DNA from: a virus
Direction: 5' to 3' (one strand)
Virus record (IMG/VR): IMGVR_UViG_3300042884_001120
Span: 1 to 64,000 of that record
Length of the DNA: 64,000 nt
Position 1 is the first letter of the stretch, and each line of letters opens with the position of its first letter. The translations under genes were made by a program, and so were the position numbers. Positions 1,948-60,223 of this stretch are shown in pieces. The notes below the pieces were generated by a model. The model made no database searches. It was given only the letters and a program-made list of their open reading frames with translations, and was not told where the DNA came from.

Positions 1948-3072
1948 TTATATATAATTTACTTTAACGTTGAAAATAATGACCTGATTACAGTTACTTG
2001 CATTTACACATCTAAGTCTCCAAATAACGCCCTCAATTCCAAGACTATTAAATGAGCTAACGTAAACTGGTTTAGCTATACGATATGAAGAGAATTGGCC
2101 CTGCGAGTTTAAAAGAGCAAATCTTTCAGTTTCTCCAACATTAGGGTTGTCTCTTAAATATAAATTAACCTTATAAGCGTTAGACAAACTTGTTGACCCC
2201 AAGTAAGCGGCGCTTGGATATTCAATATTAACAGTACTAGCTTGTTGTGGGGCTAATTGTATTGACGGAGTACATGTAATAAATGGTCTTCTACCAGTAC
2301 ACTTATCTACAACGTAACCTAATTTAATAAACCCAACTTGGGTTGGCTCTGGTCTAAAGTCTGTTAAATTAGCATTTCTAAATTCTGCAAATTGATTTTT
2401 AATCTGTGCGGCTAGGTCAAATGTTTTAAATGCTGTTGTTCCTCCGGTTTGGTACTGTAATGTAAAAGTTCTAGTTATTGTTGCGGGAGGTGCTATTGTG
2501 ATATTTGTAGATGTACGTGTAGGTGCTGCATGAAATTGATTATTACCACCTTGAGTATAATTAATTTTTATTGTTCCTATTTTTAGCAAACTCAATAAAC
2601 GCGTTGCAGAGTTAATAGTTGCCCGTCCAGTACCATTTGTAACAGTTATTGTAACTGGTAGACCAGAAGTTGCCGTGCCAGCCGATAATGTAGTTGTGGT
2701 GCCACAAGTGTAAGGCCCCAAGTTAAGTGTTGCTGAAATAGTCTGCTGTCTTTTGCAAACAAATTGAATAGATTTAGTTGCCGCTGTCCAAACATTACTG
2801 CCGCTATTGCTTCCTGTTAAAATAAAATCACCCGGCGTTGTAACGGTAATATCAACCAAGTTAGCACGATTACCAGTGCCTTTAGTAACTGTTGCTACCC
2901 CACCATTACTACTACTAACTGTATAATTAATAGCTATAGCCGCATTACTTGTAAATGCATTAAATGTTATTATGGTCGAAGGACTGTTATAACTATAAAG
3001 CCTTGAGCTTTGAGTATTTGTAATACTCGAAACACTAATTATTTGTGTTTTTTTTGCAGTTACGATGGACAT
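1948..3072 (-). CDS. Ig-like/adhesin-type putative virion protein
   Basis: Thr/Ser-rich beta protein with QQTIS...ATSGLPVTIT Ig-like motif; GTGTAA 10 nt upstream. Confidence 0.55.
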   Translation of the reverse strand: MSIVTAKKTQIISVSSITNTQSSRLYSYNSPSTIITFNAFTSNAAIAINYTVSSSNGGVATVTKGTGNRANLVDITVTTPGDFILTGSNSGSNVWTAATKSIQFVCKRQQTISATLNLGPYTCGTTTTLSAGTATSGLPVTITVTNGTGRATINSATRLLSLLKIGTIKINYTQGGNNQFHAAPTRTSTNITIAPPATITRTFTLQYQTGGTTAFKTFDLAAQIKNQFAEFRNANLTDFRPEPTQVGFIKLGYVVDKCTGRRPFITCTPSIQLAPQQASTVNIEYPSAAYLGSTSLSNAYKVNLYLRDNPNVGETERFALLNSQGQFSSYRIAKPVYVSSFNSLGIEGVIWRLRCVNASNCNQVIIFNVKVNYI

Positions 3073-3121
3073 ACTTAGTATATTACACGTAACTTTATTT
3101 TAATGCGTAAAAAATGATTTT

Positions 3122-3355
3122 TTACCCCATATTTAAAAGGTTTTGTATACCATTTATTTCAAAAGCAATTTCTTCACTACATGTAATGTGGTTTATTCTG
3201 AATTTATATTTATTGTTAAAATAGTTAACAGTAGATTCTAATTCTTTTTTTGCCTCTTCAAGCGTTTTGAACCTACTTCTCATTCCACAATCCTTCCAAG
3301 CGGTTGTGTCTGGTTCCAATATTTCTAATAAATAAGTATCGCCTATGGTTGTCAT
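3122..3355 (-). CDS. Hypothetical protein
   Basis: ORF track, tightly packed. Confidence 0.6.
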   Translation of the reverse strand: MTTIGDTYLLEILEPDTTAWKDCGMRSRFKTLEEAKKELESTVNYFNNKYKFRINHITCSEEIAFEINGIQNLLNMG

Positions 3356-3356
3356 A

Positions 3357-3596
3357 TTATATTTTAGTAAAACAATCGATATTCAAATAATCATGCCATT
3401 CAATATGTTCATCTATCTCACGAGAAAAAGCAGTTAGTAAAAAATTAACTACTTGTTTTCTAGTTTTGCCCTGTTGAAAACAGTTGGTAATTGCCATTTC
3501 AATCTTAGTATCATTTTCTCCAGATGGTAAATCTATCATCCAGCTGGCGGCATTTTTCCTTCTCTTTTCTAAAAAGATATTCATTGAGTCGTTCAT
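3357..3596 (-). CDS. Hypothetical protein
   Basis: ORF track; ATGTAA variant motif upstream. Confidence 0.6.
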   Translation of the reverse strand: MNDSMNIFLEKRRKNAASWMIDLPSGENDTKIEMAITNCFQQGKTRKQVVNFLLTAFSREIDEHIEWHDYLNIDCFTKI

Positions 3597-53226: not shown

Positions 53227-53825
53227 TTTTTTAAATTTATTATTAGTTGCTGTATTTCTTGATGGTGTTTTCCTTCACAAATAATTGGCGAATAAACTGA
53301 TTCATCTACCATGGTTGGATCTATGTACCAGTCTTCAAATTCTTTATTGTCCAGAACTTTAACATCTTTACATATTAACTTTAGCCCATTATGTTTAAAA
53401 ATCTCTCTAGATTTTGTTCGCATATGTTCGTCGCCGGTATAGGCATCATGTTCGAATGTAATGCATCTTACTTTATAAGATTTGAAGTTAAAGCTTTCTA
53501 GGCATGTTAGTGATGCCCCATGATCCAAGTCTAGTGATATATAATCAATTATATTTGGGGCGTTATTTTGATTTAAAATATCACAGATATTTTCTTTTGT
53601 CAAGTCTGCACAAATTGCTGGACTTGCTCTTTTTTGTGAGCAAAGGTTAACAAGATTCGGATCATAATCTACTAATATGCCACTCCATCCCATTTGCTCT
53701 AAAAGGGCAGTGTTATTGTATTTTACTGGTTCATTGCACCCTAAATCTAAAAAGTATCCATTTGTGGAATACTGATTTATATGAGCGGCAAAAACATCTT
53801 GACTCGCCTGAGAATTGGAGTTCAT
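53223..53825 (-). CDS. FkbM-family methyltransferase
   Basis: SQASQD, FLDLG, NNTALLE..GWSG, IDYISLD, ITFEH. Confidence 0.85.
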   Translation of the reverse strand: MNSNSQASQDVFAAHINQYSTNGYFLDLGCNEPVKYNNTALLEQMGWSGILVDYDPNLVNLCSQKRASPAICADLTKENICDILNQNNAPNIIDYISLDLDHGASLTCLESFNFKSYKVRCITFEHDAYTGDEHMRTKSREIFKHNGLKLICKDVKVLDNKEFEDWYIDPTMVDESVYSPIICEGKHHQEIQQLIINLKK

Positions 53826-54634
53826 AGCAAATTATGAATAGAATTTATAATATTGTCAAAATTAATATTACTTGCACTGTCTGCTTCTAGAAAAATAGCA
53901 TTTGGATTAATGGGAGTTCTATTTTGGAGCGGCGCACAATGGGGATACGAGTTGGTGGAGTATAGGCCTAATGTTTTATGTTTATAGCCAGACATTATCC
54001 AGTTCATACCTGTATCTGCGGTAACTAAAAATCTACAGGATCTTGCTACTCTAACGTCTTCAAAAATACTTCCACCCACTGCGGGTAAAGTTGTATTGAG
54101 TTTTTCATGTGATGTCAACCCTAATTGAACTGTCCTTAATCCTAAGGAGTGTATATATTCAATAATTTTATTACTCAAATCTTTTGGTACATCCCTTATC
54201 GCACCGGCGCTTGAAAAGGTTGTGAATGCTACATAGTCATCATATTTTTCAATTTTATCTGGCAAATCAGTTAAATCTATCTGCAGGTTACTTGGGGGTG
54301 TTAGATCATGCATTTTGCACACCGCACTTGTATGGTGCTCATATAGATACCATAAATTATTTTTATGTTGGGGCATTGGATTGAAAACTATGTCAAAATT
54401 ATTATTTTTAATATACTCTAGATCAGCATTCGACGGCCAATTGTCGTAATTCTCCCAAATTTTAATTTCATCTATAAGGGAATTGTTTTCAAAAATTGGC
54501 GCACATGATTGATACTTTTTATTTATCCCAAAAACTAAATGCGATCTAGGATATTTTTCTTTAAATGCTCTACATGCGATTAAATTCATGGCTAAATCGC
54601 CAATTTGTCCTTGATTAAATCCTATTGCTTTCAT
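53822..54634 (-). CDS. GT9-like glycosyltransferase
   Basis: GQIGD...AFKEKYP; VTADTG. Confidence 0.8.
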   Translation of the reverse strand: MKAIGFNQGQIGDLAMNLIACRAFKEKYPRSHLVFGINKKYQSCAPIFENNSLIDEIKIWENYDNWPSNADLEYIKNNNFDIVFNPMPQHKNNLWYLYEHHTSAVCKMHDLTPPSNLQIDLTDLPDKIEKYDDYVAFTTFSSAGAIRDVPKDLSNKIIEYIHSLGLRTVQLGLTSHEKLNTTLPAVGGSIFEDVRVARSCRFLVTADTGMNWIMSGYKHKTLGLYSTNSYPHCAPLQNRTPINPNAIFLEADSASNINFDNIINSIHNLL

Positions 54635-55304: not shown

Positions 55305-56132
55305 TTATATTATATGATCAGAGTAATGATTTAGGTTATTCAAAATAACTTCGGGAAAATATTTATCAATATTAACGCGAGAGAATGGTGTCTCTTTCTT
55401 ATCAAGTTGCTCAAGATGAATAAAAAACCTATCACCCGATTGTTTAAACTTTTCAAAGTGTTCTTTGAATTGCTCCAGTGATGGGAGTTTTGTTTTGTCA
55501 AATGGCTCTATACATGAAAGACTTTTCTGGTAAATTTTTTCATATCCACCTAGCCAGCTAAAGTGCCATCCCGCATTTACTATTAATGGGTAATAATCTT
55601 TACTGTTCCTAATTGATTGGCAGCTATGCTGTTTGAATGTACTGAAATTACATGCCGTGGTTCCCACCCAAGATCTGTTTGAGGCTTTTAAATTTAAAAA
55701 GTATGCAAAAAAATCAAGCTCTAAAGAATAAATTAGGTCATGATTTTTCGGGTCTGAAAAAACTGTTTTTAAAGCCTGTATTGATTGCTGTCTGGGTATT
55801 TCATCAAGATCAGAAATCATTATTATATCTCTGGCATCTGGGTGTAGATCTATTACCGCTTTTTGAATGTAGTTTCTTTGGAAGTTCTCCATATTCCATA
55901 AATTATCATCATTATTAACGCATTCATTTTTTGGTATTTTGATATGCACTATTTTATCTTGGAATTTAGAAAGTTTATGTTTATTGTCTTCAAAGTAAAA
56001 TGGTTTATCCAGAAGACTCTGTGTTACGGCCGCCTCTACTAGTACAAATTTATCTACATGGCTATAAAGTTCTTCTAGCCTTACCTGCAGAAGATCTAGT
56101 TCGTTAAAAAATGTGAAACAATCAATTATCAT
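55305..56132 (-). CDS. GT17-family glycosyltransferase
   Basis: IIDCFTFFNELDLL..R, ENFQRN, ISDLDEIP, GWHFSW. Confidence 0.9.
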   Translation of the reverse strand: MIIDCFTFFNELDLLQVRLEELYSHVDKFVLVEAAVTQSLLDKPFYFEDNKHKLSKFQDKIVHIKIPKNECVNNDDNLWNMENFQRNYIQKAVIDLHPDARDIIMISDLDEIPRQQSIQALKTVFSDPKNHDLIYSLELDFFAYFLNLKASNRSWVGTTACNFSTFKQHSCQSIRNSKDYYPLIVNAGWHFSWLGGYEKIYQKSLSCIEPFDKTKLPSLEQFKEHFEKFKQSGDRFFIHLEQLDKKETPFSRVNIDKYFPEVILNNLNHYSDHII

Positions 56133-56797
56133 AATTTAGGCAGTCTTTCATTGGGTATCAATACTAAATGTTTATGTGTATTCGGGATGGGATTCCAGTC
56201 TGCATCTTGCAATATATTACCATGCGGATTATCAATAATTGAGTATTGGTAGTCTTTTAAGTTATTAAAGTTAAAACCGCCATCCTCAGGCCACTTCCAG
56301 TGAGGATTATTTTGATAGTCATCTTTATTATTTTTTGAAGATGCGTGTATTTCTACATGAATCGTCGGGCGCTTATTCTCGAAAAGGAAATCAAAAGTAT
56401 TTAATACGATGCTTTCCATGCCTTCAATATCCATTTTAATAAAATCTGGTAAATCTATATTATGTATTTTTATAAAATCGTTTAGTCGTGAATATTTAAT
56501 TGGCTGCTCTCTATTTCTTTCTCCGTGAATTCTAAATTCTGAACAGTCTTTAAAGCGAGTGTTACAGTCATAATTTTTATCGTTAAGCGCTATGTTGTAG
56601 CAATGAATATTGTTGTGTCCTGAAGTATTATTCAATAAATCAGAAAAATTTAATGTAGAGGGTTCAAATGTAAATACTTTTCTTGCGCCAAGATTTACAA
56701 ATTTAATACTCATTTCACCAATATATCCGCCAATATCATAAACTATACTATTGGGTTCTAAGTATGTTTGATATAAAATGTCTTCGATGTTATTCAT
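56129..56797 (-). CDS. FkbM-family methyltransferase
   Basis: YDIGGYIG, FEP, FIKMDIEGME, VEIH. Confidence 0.9.
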   Translation of the reverse strand: MNNIEDILYQTYLEPNSIVYDIGGYIGEMSIKFVNLGARKVFTFEPSTLNFSDLLNNTSGHNNIHCYNIALNDKNYDCNTRFKDCSEFRIHGERNREQPIKYSRLNDFIKIHNIDLPDFIKMDIEGMESIVLNTFDFLFENKRPTIHVEIHASSKNNKDDYQNNPHWKWPEDGGFNFNNLKDYQYSIIDNPHGNILQDADWNPIPNTHKHLVLIPNERLPKL

Positions 56798-56799
56798 GG

Positions 56800-57755
56800 T
56801 TATATATATTTTCTTTGTATTATTGTATTTTCTATTGTATTTCCGTATTCGGGAAACATGCTTGATGCTGGATGTAGGGTTGAATTAATTACTAATTGAG
56901 ATATCGCATTTATATCGTAATGCATTGGTAGTACATATTTCTCAAATACTAGCCACCTTAATAGGTGCGAAGGCGCGGGATTAAATGGTTGTTTACAGTA
57001 CTTAGAAAAAACATAGGTAGGTTTTCCGTAGTGTAGTGGGAAATATCTCAATCCAGAGTCTACGCCAATAAAGGCGGAACATGCCTCGCTTAATGCAAAA
57101 AAATCTTCTAGTGAGCAATCTGTCAAAGTAAAGTTTGGATATTGAAGATCTGAGATTTCTTTATAAAAATCCATATATTCGGTTTGACACACCGAAACAA
57201 CCTGCTTACCAGACGCTAATAGCTTTTTAAGCAATGCTATAACATACCACTGTTCAACATTATGATCAGAGTTGGGTCTTGGGTAAAGATGTGTAAGAAT
57301 ATAACTATCTTTAATATCAGACAACTGATTATTTATCTCTGGTCTTGGAAAGAAATAAAAATATCGTTTCCAATCAAAACTATAATTTAGCCAGTCAAGG
57401 TTGTCTATGCACAGGTTATAGAAGTAATCTGAGTCGTTAAGTAGTTTAATATATTGATCTGGTAGATTATCTAGATGGCAGTTATAAACCTCTTCTCCAA
57501 ACTGGCTTTTTACTTTAAAATCTTTACTTTTTCTACTTTCAATTACTTTGCAATTATTATTTGTATAAATACTTGGCCAAGCATACTTAAGCAAATTTAT
57601 CTGTTTGTGGTTATTTTCAGTATCTGAATAGAAATTTAATTGAGCATTAGGGTGCTTTTCCCTGATGGCCGCGACAAATCTATTAGATAGAAGATGATCT
57701 CCGATACCTAACCGCCCTCAAGACGAATAGAAACAGTGTGCTTACTTGGGGGCAA
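56800..57755 (-). CDS. GT9-like glycosyltransferase, interrupted by 5 nt after codon 15
   Basis: TTG-start MPPSKHTVSIRLEGG* (57755-57708), then out-of-frame IGDHLLSNRFVAAIREKHP (from 57705) continuous with track ORF 56800..57594; FIGVDSG. Confidence 0.7.
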
Positions 57756-58584
57756 TTAAACCACCCCCTTGTACTTGTGAAAAAAAATCTTCCATTTTAA
57801 GTTTTTTTCTGTTTAAAAAAATGTTTGCATCTTTATATAGAAAGTTATATATAGATAGTATATCTTCTTGCGAATAAATGCAAGTATTATATAAATTAAA
57901 ATTTGTATATTTAGAGATAGAAACCCTTGGTCTTACTCCTGTAAGCTTTTGTATATGAAACTTAGCTTTTTCGTGCCATTCTTTTGTACTAATGATAGAA
58001 AATTCCCCGTTAATATAATTTCTTTGGTTTTTTTTAATTTTAAAACAGCCATCCCCATCAAACATTCCTCTTATATAGTGCCTAATTAATTCTTTTTGTA
58101 GATTTGGGAATTTTAAATTTACGGTCTTGTCTTGAATGCATCCAAAAGACAATAAGTCTTCACTGATTTTTCTTATGGGAACATAAAGTTTGTGCATGTT
58201 TTTTTTGCCCTTCTTTCCGGGTGGACGGTTTTGTAACGGCCTATCCCCAAAAAATAGAGAACTTATATTTTTTAGTATATAACCATCTTCTTCTTGTAGA
58301 GATATTTCGATCTTTCCTCTTTTTACATCGTTATAACCATCTGCATGAAAGAGCCCTAAAAAATAAGCTTTTTCTTGGGTATCGATGCTTGTAAAAATAT
58401 TTTTATTAGTTGGATATAATATATTTCTTTTTTGTATTGCTCCGTTCTTTTTAAGAACGTAATAAATTTGGTCCTTTGTCAGTCCTAATTCTGAAGAAAT
58501 TTCGTTGTATGGCTTTCCATCTAAATATAAGGATTTCATAGTGCATAACTGCTTTTCGGTGGGATAAAACGGTTCTTGTCTCAT
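57742..58584 (-). mobile_element. Free-standing LAGLIDADG homing endonuclease with N-terminal HTH
   Basis: AYFLGLFHADG and HYIRGMFDGDG. Confidence 0.9.
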
Positions 58585-58622
58585 TAAATGATATTACACT
58601 CCTTCCGATCGTACAGTCGTTA

Positions 58623-59723
58623 TTATTTTGCTAGTGCGCCCTTGAACTTATTGAATAAGTAAAGACAAATTTCTTTATTTTCTTCCAAGAAAGTTCTTAA
58701 CTTTTCCATTCCTTGGATCGTGCTTGGTACTGCTTGCCCAGTTTCTTTTGCTACTTCGTCTATTAATTTAGAATCAAGATTAATCCATGCTCCAGCCTTT
58801 TTTGCAAAACCCCATTGAATTAGCATGTCAGATACTTCGTATTCAATCCAAATGCTATTTCCACCAGTTCTACCATGGCGAATTGGGTACAATATTTCAG
58901 TTCCTTCCTTCTCGTTCGTGGTCTTTCGGAGAAGAATTTTTGCCCAATGACCAATAATTTTTCCATCTTCAACTATCTGGTCTGCTTTATACCTAGGTTG
59001 GAACTCGAAAATCCAATCAGCATAATGCTGTAGAGCATTGCCACCAGAACTATTTGTAAGTTTTGGATCTGTTTTGGCGTACGGATTAATTTGAACATTA
59101 GAACGCACCTGTGAGATTAGCGCGCAAACGTGTCCAAAAGTTGATAGTGGCAACATGATCATTTTTAGAAAATGCGAACTAATAACTGCTCCAGCGGCGA
59201 CTTTTTGACTATCTTCAAAGCCCTTGGCGGCATCGTTTTTAGCGATAAGCGCATCCATGCTATCAATTAAAAAATAATATCTAGATTCGTCTGGATTATT
59301 CTTAATTAATTCCAAGATAATACTTGCAACATTTTCATAAATATTAGTACGCAATACGAAGCAAGTTCCATCAACCCAATCTTCGGCCTTGTCTACAAAC
59401 TTAACTCCAGATACGTTTTTTACATTAGAGTTAAGCCTTCCTTCTGCTTTAACTAGAAAACCCTTACCCTTTGGTACCGTATCTAGGAAATTCTTCATAA
59501 TAAGAAGAGCGGAACTGGTTTTTCCACCACCACTTACTCCAGTAAAACGTAAAATTGCTGGAACTTCTAACGATCCCCCCATCTCTGAATCCAAGAGGAG
59601 TGAGCCCGTAGATACGTTAAAAATTTTTTCGTCTTCAAAGTTATAGTGTTCACCTTTCGTGCTCTTTAGAAAGGATGCTAATACGGATTGACTTGAGTTT
59701 GATTTTACTTCTTCTTTTGCCAT
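58623..59723 (-). CDS. recA: RecA/UvsX-like recombinase
   Basis: VSTGSLLLD, GVSGGGKT, LIDS, ISQVR, SGGNALQHY. Confidence 0.9.
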   Translation of the reverse strand: MAKEEVKSNSSQSVLASFLKSTKGEHYNFEDEKIFNVSTGSLLLDSEMGGSLEVPAILRFTGVSGGGKTSSALLIMKNFLDTVPKGKGFLVKAEGRLNSNVKNVSGVKFVDKAEDWVDGTCFVLRTNIYENVASIILELIKNNPDESRYYFLIDSMDALIAKNDAAKGFEDSQKVAAGAVISSHFLKMIMLPLSTFGHVCALISQVRSNVQINPYAKTDPKLTNSSGGNALQHYADWIFEFQPRYKADQIVEDGKIIGHWAKILLRKTTNEKEGTEILYPIRHGRTGGNSIWIEYEVSDMLIQWGFAKKAGAWINLDSKLIDEVAKETGQAVPSTIQGMEKLRTFLEENKEICLYLFNKFKGALAK

Positions 59724-60223
59724 AAATTTAAAAATTCTCGCACTGTCATAGGTGCTTGTACAGTTTCACCTATTTTTCCCTGAAACTCAATATTATTATT
59801 TTCCAGAACAAAATTCTGTGGTTTTTCAGGTTCAAAAATGAATTTTTTGTATTCAGTATTTAACATTTTCCTTCCTTCGTCGGAAAGGAACCAGCAAAGA
59901 CTATTTAACTGAAATCTTAATGTTAAAGAATTCCAGAATAAATCATTTGGAAAAATTTTTAGGAGAGAATTTACTATCTTCATCTCTCTTGGCCAGACTA
60001 TACTCGCGTCTGGTTTAGTAAACTTTAAAACAAAATCTCTTTTATTTAGACTCGTATTCCGAACAGCCTTCGCAGGTTTCTTTTTGGATTTTGAAAATTT
60101 CCCTCTTTTCGCAGAAGAATCCTTTGTCTGTATAGTTTCCCCCTCTACAGGCACATCTAGTAATAAGTCTTTCCTGCTCATCTTGTGAGCGGAATTTACA
60201 AGTGCTAAGTTTTTCTTCTCCAT
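59705..60223 (-). CDS. Hypothetical basic protein
   Basis: ORF track. Confidence 0.6.
   Translation of the reverse strand: MEKKNLALVNSAHKMSRKDLLLDVPVEGETIQTKDSSAKRGKFSKSKKKPAKAVRNTSLNKRDFVLKFTKPDASIVWPREMKIVNSLLKIFPNDLFWNSLTLRFQLNSLCWFLSDEGRKMLNTEYKKFIFEPEKPQNFVLENNNIEFQGKIGETVQAPMTVREFLNLWQKKK

Follow-up and report, generated by a model that had tools for sequence, protein, structure and literature searches.

To our knowledge, efficient natural translational bypassing is so far represented almost entirely by gene 60 of phage T4 and its homologs. The T4 MobA element combines three parts in one mobile unit: an endonuclease, a recoded homologous region ('homR') and the bypass insert (Manning and Atkins, bioRxiv 10.1101/2022.08.31.505936, citing Bonocora et al. 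2011). The 50-nt insert in gene 60 blocks nicking of the element's own genome by MobA, which the recoded region alone did not (bioRxiv 10.1101/2022.08.31.505936). Much shorter events are known from engineered systems: in E. coli, synthetic constructs support stop-hops as well as +5/+6 hops from a codon to its match (PMC5009743), and short natural counterparts of the stop-hops have long been presumed and barely documented (review, Atkins et al. 2016, PMC5009743). The nearest short natural bypass with protein evidence is that in the terminase of Streptomyces phage Hau3, for which the junction peptide was confirmed in E. coli (PMC10732093). Here we describe a viral locus in which a glycosyltransferase (GT) gene is interrupted by five bases, TAGGT, that belong to a mobile cassette with a LAGLIDADG homing endonuclease. 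The locus lies in a 64,000-nt stretch of DNA (the window; positions 1 to 64,000 of IMG/VR virus record IMGVR_UViG_3300042884_001120). Comparison of related loci makes it somewhat more probable than its opposite that the cassette is analogous to T4 mobA/gene 60 and that its 5-nt insert is hopped over by ribosomes. The fuller statement is evenly poised between true and false: a natural, selected +5 stop-hop, the shortest programmed bypass known, placed in a LAGLIDADG cassette that breaks its own target and leaves the protein unchanged.

The interrupted glycosyltransferase gene

The virus record is complete at 154,360 bp, with direct terminal repeats. Coordinates below are those of the window and the site is read on the minus strand; fetched relatives of the locus carry L numbers and protein homologs P numbers. 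The interrupted gene is made up of the following parts:

57708..57755, minus strand: GT open reading frame 1 (ORF1), opened by the TTG at 57755-57753; 15 codons, ending in ...TVSIRLEGG, then TAG
57711..57713, minus strand: proposed take-off codon GGT (Gly13 of the GT), the same in both cassette lineages
57706..57710, minus strand: 5-nt insert TAGGT relative to uninterrupted alleles, placed by alignment with endonuclease-free alleles
56800..57705, minus strand: GT ORF2, from the resume codon ATC (Ile14, 57705-57703) to the stop at 56800-56802; 301-302 codons

The stop (TAG, 57710-57708) and the proposed landing codon (GGT, 57708-57706) both fall within the insert, and an identical GGT is hence found 5 bases downstream of the take-off GGT. 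The TTG of ORF1 overlaps the last codons of the endonuclease gene and is directly preceded by an in-frame TAA. Upstream of the landing GGT, the frame of ORF2 is closed by a TGA at a distance of four codons, and no ATG, GTG or TTG occurs before 57594, ~37 codons in (to about codon 50); ORF2 is therefore without a start of its own near its beginning. Gene callers place the start differently in each background, with products of 264, 223-224 and 124 aa, and an internal start is therefore not conserved. Full-length uninterrupted homologs are many (314-316 aa, 66-91% identical) and begin M-x-x-x-TVSIRLEGG-IGDHLL..., which is exactly ORF1 plus ORF2 minus the five bases. The original prediction, which had been made from the letters of the window, read the minus-strand sequence, the GGT-TAG-GT and its coordinates correctly, and its frame of about 300 codons downstream is indeed open over 301-302 codons. 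It was also right that simple readthrough of the UAG fails to restore the frame.

The sequence of the insert is singular. By arithmetic, TAGGT is the only one of the 1024 5-mers that puts a stop right after the take-off codon together with an identical landing codon right before the resume codon. A scan of the whole genome (154 kb) for a codon, a stop and the same codon within 4-11 bases, before a long start-less frame, returned this site only.

The long frame of the GT has no Pfam family at E 0.01 and a single sub-threshold match in NCBIfam (TIGR04372 at 0.0087), and some JGI records label its homologs ADP-heptose:LPS heptosyltransferase. An AlphaFold model of the closest uninterrupted ortholog, P0001, built with a 26-sequence alignment, has a pLDDT of 92 and a GT-B fold of two Rossmann domains; among solved structures in the PDB it is matched best by WaaC and WaaF of E. 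coli (E 1e-8 to 7e-7) and a Veillonella GT9 enzyme, the whole set covering E 1e-8 to 5e-6 at TM ~0.5. The model thus suggests a GT-B enzyme closest to the GT9 heptosyltransferases WaaC/WaaF. Its first beta strand spans residues 5-11 and a helix runs from residue 14; therefore the break falls in the Gly loop that joins strand 1 to helix 1 in the N-terminal Rossmann domain. The invariant residues of the family are R9, E11, G12, G13, G15 and D16, with the set from R9 to G13 encoded before the gap, and the EGG-x-GD loop keeps one length throughout, both in 26 homologs and in the 77 copies of the motif that 80 viral loci yielded. The interrupted gene is one of several glycosyltransferase genes in this genome. 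Support is weak for the neighbour at 53822-54634 as a GT9 gene with the same motif, as put forward earlier: GQIGD does stand at its beginning, but Pfam assigns it to no family at E 0.01 and BLASTP against the GT reaches only E 0.12.

A mobile cassette carries the insert

The five bases are part of a larger unit inserted directly after a recombinase gene:

57661..58622, minus strand: mobile cassette of ~960 bp, consisting of a 38-nt spacer, the endonuclease gene and recoded GT codons 1 to ~28 with the 5-nt insert
57742..58584, minus strand: free-standing LAGLIDADG homing endonuclease, 280 aa (Pfam PF14528, 3.4e-8, and PF00961, 5.8e-4; PHROG 4645, 4.5e-44)
58623..59723, minus strand: recA/uvsX-like recombinase gene (Pfam RecA, 9e-8; PHROG 97, UvsX-like, 8e-23)

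The left border is sharp and coincides with the stop codon of the recA-like gene (58625-58623). On the right, the end of the cassette varies with the background from 57655 to 57668, which is 37-51 nt beyond the insert and a spread of ~15 nt. The endonuclease has an N-terminal helix-turn-helix and two LAGLIDADG-type motifs in its translation; its one match named HNH is a weak PHROG match (2.4e-6) that covers the LAGLIDADG motif region. An intein can be set aside, since the ORF begins and ends with a start and a stop of its own; nor does it share a frame with its neighbours. A search of Rfam around the gene, with E up to 1, found no group I intron, the sole match being a sub-threshold Ocean-VII (E 0.37).

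GGT-TAG-GT, with its UAG and its matched GGU codons 5 nt apart as originally noticed in the window, is found in all 15 endonuclease-bearing loci fetched from ENA, NCBI, JGI and Logan assemblies (the window, L002, L042-L047 and L128-L134). All share one order: recA-like stop, 38-nt spacer, endonuclease, TTG-ORF1, GGT-TAG-GT and ORF2. Four endonuclease-free backgrounds (L003, L136, L137-139 and L140) are without the cassette and have the uninterrupted motif GGN GGN ATH GGN GAY; in such alleles the recA-like stop overlaps or abuts the GT start (TAATG in L003). The alignment of orthologs thus has GGT-TAG-GT conserved in every fetched locus with the endonuclease and absent from the endonuclease-free alleles. 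The commonest variant of the endonuclease is alone indexed in 53 sample blocks, and in assemblies the endonuclease-bearing alleles are at least as common as the endonuclease-free ones. As the same insert is present in independent assemblies, the five bases are not an assembly error, and since the cassette carries them, their presence is explained.

The loci are mosaic. In a multiple alignment of the window, L128, L131 and L133 the cassette is 96-100% identical and the flanks, namely the recA-like gene and the GT body, are 65-88% identical. Between the five endonuclease-bearing backgrounds, GT bodies share 79-91% identity, a range as broad as the diversity among endonuclease-free orthologs, and all are open over 301-302 codons. 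Conversely, L003, without the endonuclease, has flanks 96-100% identical to those of the window and L042, which have it, and the L042 GT body is 99.2% identical to the endonuclease-free P0001. Each invasion swaps GT codons 1 to ~28 for the cassette version, in which most synonymous positions differ and the amino acids are the same. This pattern of identities bears the signature of recent homing of the cassette into several diverged phages. The cassette is a selfish element spreading among uncultured freshwater phages.

A side observation concerns the 3' end of the endonuclease gene: its last ~14 residues resemble the C-terminal tail of the recA-like protein, and 57742-57800 and 58623-58660 have the DNA AAGTNCAAGGG in common. 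This end of the gene may, to judge from the shared DNA, be a remnant copy of the original recA-GT junction.

Age and selection across the gap

There are two cassette lineages. The endonuclease of the second (L042-L044) is 88% identical in amino acids to that of the window (dS 0.58, dN 0.06, dN/dS 0.10); its cassette has the same GGT-TAG-GT and sits in a background near-identical to the window's, with flanks 96-100% identical. Because dN/dS is 0.10, and because a dS of 0.58 is found in near-identical backgrounds, the substitution pattern indicates that the endonuclease is under purifying selection and that the two lineages are far older than the invasions.

This depth allows the GT codons carried by the cassette to be compared on both sides of the gap. 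Among 22 such codons, 9 before the gap and 13 after it, the lineages differ at 5 sites, and all 5 are synonymous third positions: CGT/CGC and GGC/GGA upstream, and TTT/TTC, GTC/GTT and GCG/GCC downstream, each synonymous in the frame that a hop would give. With 27-31% of random substitutions being synonymous, the chance of 5/5 under neutrality is 0.0015-0.003. Beside the gap, 0 of ~49 nonsynonymous sites have changed, as against ~40% of synonymous sites in the linked endonuclease gene. The 27 nt from the endonuclease to the insert could hardly be refreshed from native alleles without losing one of the two, and the two upstream synonymous changes hence most likely arose in place. Copying of these changes in the second lineage from an L137-like allele was considered and set aside; such a conversion patch is unlikely and the matches are discontinuous. 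The TTG start and the open ORF1 are also kept in both lineages, the first six codons of ORF1 varying like native N-termini. The 31 nt from the take-off codon through the possible hairpin described below are unchanged between the lineages, where ~3 synonymous changes would be expected (P ~0.03); this is a weak hint, from the alignment of two sequences, of an extra constraint on that segment. The recoding site is common to two lineages with a dS of 0.58, with synonymous-only change in both flanking frames, which in this small sample points to purifying selection on both ORFs.

A candidate +5 stop-hop

We propose the following course of events. A LAGLIDADG cassette would have replaced the first ~28 GT codons directly after the recA-like gene, bringing in synonymously recoded codons together with TAGGT between Gly13 and Ile14, in the invariant EGG-x-GD loop. 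By analogy with T4 MobA/gene 60, insert and recoding would destroy the endonuclease target in the cassette's own genome, and the cassette would thus be immune while invading uninterrupted alleles during co-infection. An insert that is not a multiple of three would be skipped by ribosomes, such that the DNA target is broken inside an invariant motif and the protein is unaltered. The GT, as its sequence and evolution suggest, would still be made: translation would begin at the TTG overlapping the end of the endonuclease gene and, once the ribosome has peptidyl-tRNA-Gly paired to GGU and finds UAG in its A site, the tRNA would unpair, the mRNA would slip by five bases, the tRNA would re-pair with the identical GGU and decoding would resume at AUC. 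The GGU five bases on is the only downstream triplet for re-pairing of peptidyl-tRNA-Gly that reaches the right frame. The product would have the exact wild-type junction LEGG-IGDH, with LEGGIGDHLLSNR as the predicted tryptic junction peptide. The restored SIRLEGG-IGDHLL of the original prediction accordingly matches the uninterrupted orthologs exactly.

One structural feature is a candidate accessory:

57682..57712, minus strand: possible take-off hairpin enclosing the stop and the landing codon; 13 bp, 3 of them G-U, with a bulge of 2 nt and a loop of 3 nt

The 18 tRNA genes of the phage include none for glycine and no suppressor. The genome has a GC content of 36%, and TAG is its rarest stop, ending 12 of 140 long ORFs. 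Arguments from Shine-Dalgarno-like motifs (at the TTG start, and a GAGG before the take-off codon) were dropped: such motifs precede 8% of ORFs against a background of 5.6%, and the GAGG argument is further weakened because the E-G-G codons make such motifs in uninterrupted alleles too.

Several points weigh against a selected hop. The synonymous-only pattern consists of 5 substitutions, and its downstream part could stem from recombination with functional alleles. Both lineages share the take-off, stop and landing codons, so that the two offer no covariation. Each invasion of the GT looks recent, and intact GT bodies are hence poor evidence of selection since then; on endonuclease-bearing branches the singleton changes (6 synonymous, 3 nonsynonymous) lean towards selection but, as they may have arisen before or after the invasion, are suggestive only. 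The hairpin folds much as first described, with 13 bp at -8.6 kcal/mol, but as a hallmark it is statistically weak (z -1.76; 9 of 200 shuffles are no less stable), and in the 111-nt context the minimum-energy fold does not contain it. A nascent chain of only 15 residues makes a T4-like peptide signal impossible. The hop may also be inefficient, synthetic stop-hops of the kind associated with the 1987 work of Weiss and colleagues reportedly reaching about 1%. Of the gene 60 hallmarks claimed at the outset, the matched Gly codons and the adjacent UAG therefore stand, and the stem-loop does not carry the same weight. The idea of a minimal bypass element keeps its core, in that no re-pairing other than a +5 hop restores the frame and the interruption is real and old; the hairpin is weak evidence for it.

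Alternative explanations

The main rival has the cassette simply inactivating the GT: the insert would be an immunity mutation or a hitch-hiking lesion, the matched GGT and the TAG would be coincidental, and homing would spread the selfish element faster than selection removes it, with no full-length GT made. We consider this possible, if rather unlikely. The invasions are recent, with the cassette 96-100% identical across diverged backgrounds and L042 differing from the endonuclease-free L003 at 7 of 285 GT codons, and intact GT bodies are therefore to be expected even for a dead gene. The genome has other glycosyltransferases, and the loss of this one might be tolerated; one GT allele (L005/P0012) lacks the first ~40 codons altogether. 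However, the GT codons borne by the cassette itself are intact at all nonsynonymous sites, in both frames, over a time in which the endonuclease reached a dS of 0.58. Both lineages retain the TTG start and an open 15-codon ORF1, the insert is the sole 5-mer of 1024 with both features of a stop-hop, and endonuclease-bearing alleles are no rarer in assemblies than endonuclease-free ones.

Decoding routes other than a hop have, taken together, a small chance of being correct. A ribosome that terminates at the UAG stands 2 nt from the AUC codon, and spontaneous 70S sliding with re-initiation is known in bacteria (PMC11194080), which counts for separate translation of ORF2, either by re-initiation after ORF1 at a non-canonical codon, for example AUC, or with the internal TTG (57594) as its start, giving a truncated or two-piece enzyme. 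Yet the vicinity of the gap offers no ATG, GTG or TTG, the internal TTG is not kept from one background to the next, the truncated protein would be without beta-strand 1 and the invariant R9, E11, G12 and G13, and the purifying selection on the codons of ORF1 would be left unexplained; we hold this route to be very improbable. Slightly less credible still is a -1 ribosomal frameshift at GGT-T, yielding EGG-L-GIGD, which had been named as an alternative from the start. It does reach the downstream frame, and a UAG in the A site can stimulate slippage in the P site, but the Gly tRNA would, as read from the sequence, face CGG and pair at the middle base only, and the product would have two extra residues in a loop that never varies in length across 26 homologs and 77 viral loci. 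That the five bases are an artefact of assembly or sequencing is next to inconceivable: the window is a metagenome-assembled contig, but the identical insert recurs in data from several projects, put together with different assemblers, and is shared by five GT backgrounds and by both of the diverged cassette lineages.

Searches for further cases

Beyond the fetched loci, the search for relatives returned little. Positions 56000 to 59800 of the window have no match in an annotated phage collection by blastn in distant mode. Scans of IMG/VR for the exact junction and for a degenerate pattern found none, in a set that may leave out the close relatives of the window, and the degenerate pattern has two GC-rich chance matches in GTDB genomes, with no GT behind either. 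IMG/VR and JGI metagenomes also contain more distant relatives of the endonuclease, none above 42% identity and all located elsewhere.

A scan for the same signature in the loci of these distant relatives and in 80 GT loci gave four matches: L020, L095 (twice) and L090. The match in L020 was rejected; it is 1.8 kb away from its endonuclease gene. L095, an IMG/VR contig, has two tandem GT paralogs (2448-2573 / 2492-3418), the second of which is frameshifted in the EGG-x-GD loop. The same GT loop is thus broken, but by a 1-nt shift in a G4 run, and this break was rejected as a hop site; it has no stop, no matched codons and no endonuclease nearby. This shift is probably a homopolymer error or a mutation, a -1 slip on GGGG being possible, and a search for relatives of L095 returned only L095 itself.

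Variation in and around the glycosyltransferase gene

Several further differences among the GT alleles were seen. The GT of the window is ~99% identical to those of L003/L042 over codons 30-240 and 65-70% identical over the last ~70 codons (56800-57000, codons ~245-314), a step in identity that points to a recombination breakpoint inside the window's gene. Downstream of the GT, the order of an FkbM-type methyltransferase gene and a GT17 gene differs between the window (55305-56797) and L042 (4798-6395), otherwise near-identical phages, and in other backgrounds the genes at this place are different ones; modules of the glycosylation locus appear to be shuffled. The GT of L002 (2761-3672) is one codon (Gln) shorter than that of the near-identical L128, by an in-frame deletion. 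In L005 (1-120), the allele P0012 (275 aa) begins with ATG GAT ACC after 45 nt of unrelated sequence at the contig end; a deletion, or another insertion at this end of the gene, may account for it. Finally, the endonuclease-free L003 has a strong RNA hairpin (852-893) over GT codons 13-27, in the region that the cassette replaces; an 86-nt fold has -25.7 kcal/mol and a z of -3.3, with 0 of 200 shuffles as good. This hairpin might be related to translation control or to the endonuclease target.

Comparison with known systems

If the proposed hop is true, the locus would be an independent case of natural bypassing that differs in its endonuclease family, its target gene and the length of its gap (5 nt). 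It would mean that hopping of the ribosome over a stop needs very little signal, and that hopping is used time and again by selfish endonucleases to make their own genomes immune. Annotation by gene callers would systematically truncate such genes (264, 223-224 or 124 aa instead of ~316). A cassette of ~50 nt would also be compact enough for mechanistic work on take-off and landing.

Synthetic stop-hops in E. coli are close to the proposed event in mechanism: in these too, the peptidyl-tRNA leaves a codon beside a stop and re-pairs a few bases on, with no elaborate signals. They are engineered and of low efficiency, whereas the candidate described here would be natural, conserved and on a mobile element. 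With Hau3 and the 'byp' inserts of Magnusiomyces mitochondria it would share the skipping of a short coding gap that renders the insert harmless (PMC10732093; PMC5009743). In those cases, however, the A site holds either a stop or a sense codon (UUA) that is rare or not used, the hosts are other, there is no link to a homing endonuclease, and the mitochondrial 'byp' cases depend on relaxed decoding.

On the side of the mobile element, the intronless homing of the T4 Seg and Mob endonucleases (PMC2988022) offers a parallel in the intergenic position of the endonuclease, its sporadic presence among near-identical genomes and the co-conversion of flanks. Their self-immunity too comes about through differences in the target sequence (PMC2988022); these are usually point polymorphisms that keep the frame, unlike the frame-breaking insert found here.

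The closest likeness overall is to T4 MobA/gene 60. In both, a free-standing endonuclease, recoded target codons and an insert in a highly conserved motif move as one, and an older element has made recent independent invasions of diverged phages; both have matched Gly take-off and landing codons, a UAG right after the take-off codon and a possible stem-loop including the stop. The differences are as clear. MobA is an HNH enzyme and the endonuclease here is of the LAGLIDADG family; gene 60 encodes part of the topoisomerase II large subunit, which is split in two, and the target here is a GT in an unsplit gene; the T4 gap is 50 nt and depends on a nascent-peptide signal, and the gap here is 5 nt and lies 15 codons in. 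Bypass and protection from cleavage, established in T4, are at this locus proposed from sequence and analogy. Because endonuclease family, target and gap length all differ, the cassette is not a member of the MobA/gene 60 family, and by analogy it appears to work like one.

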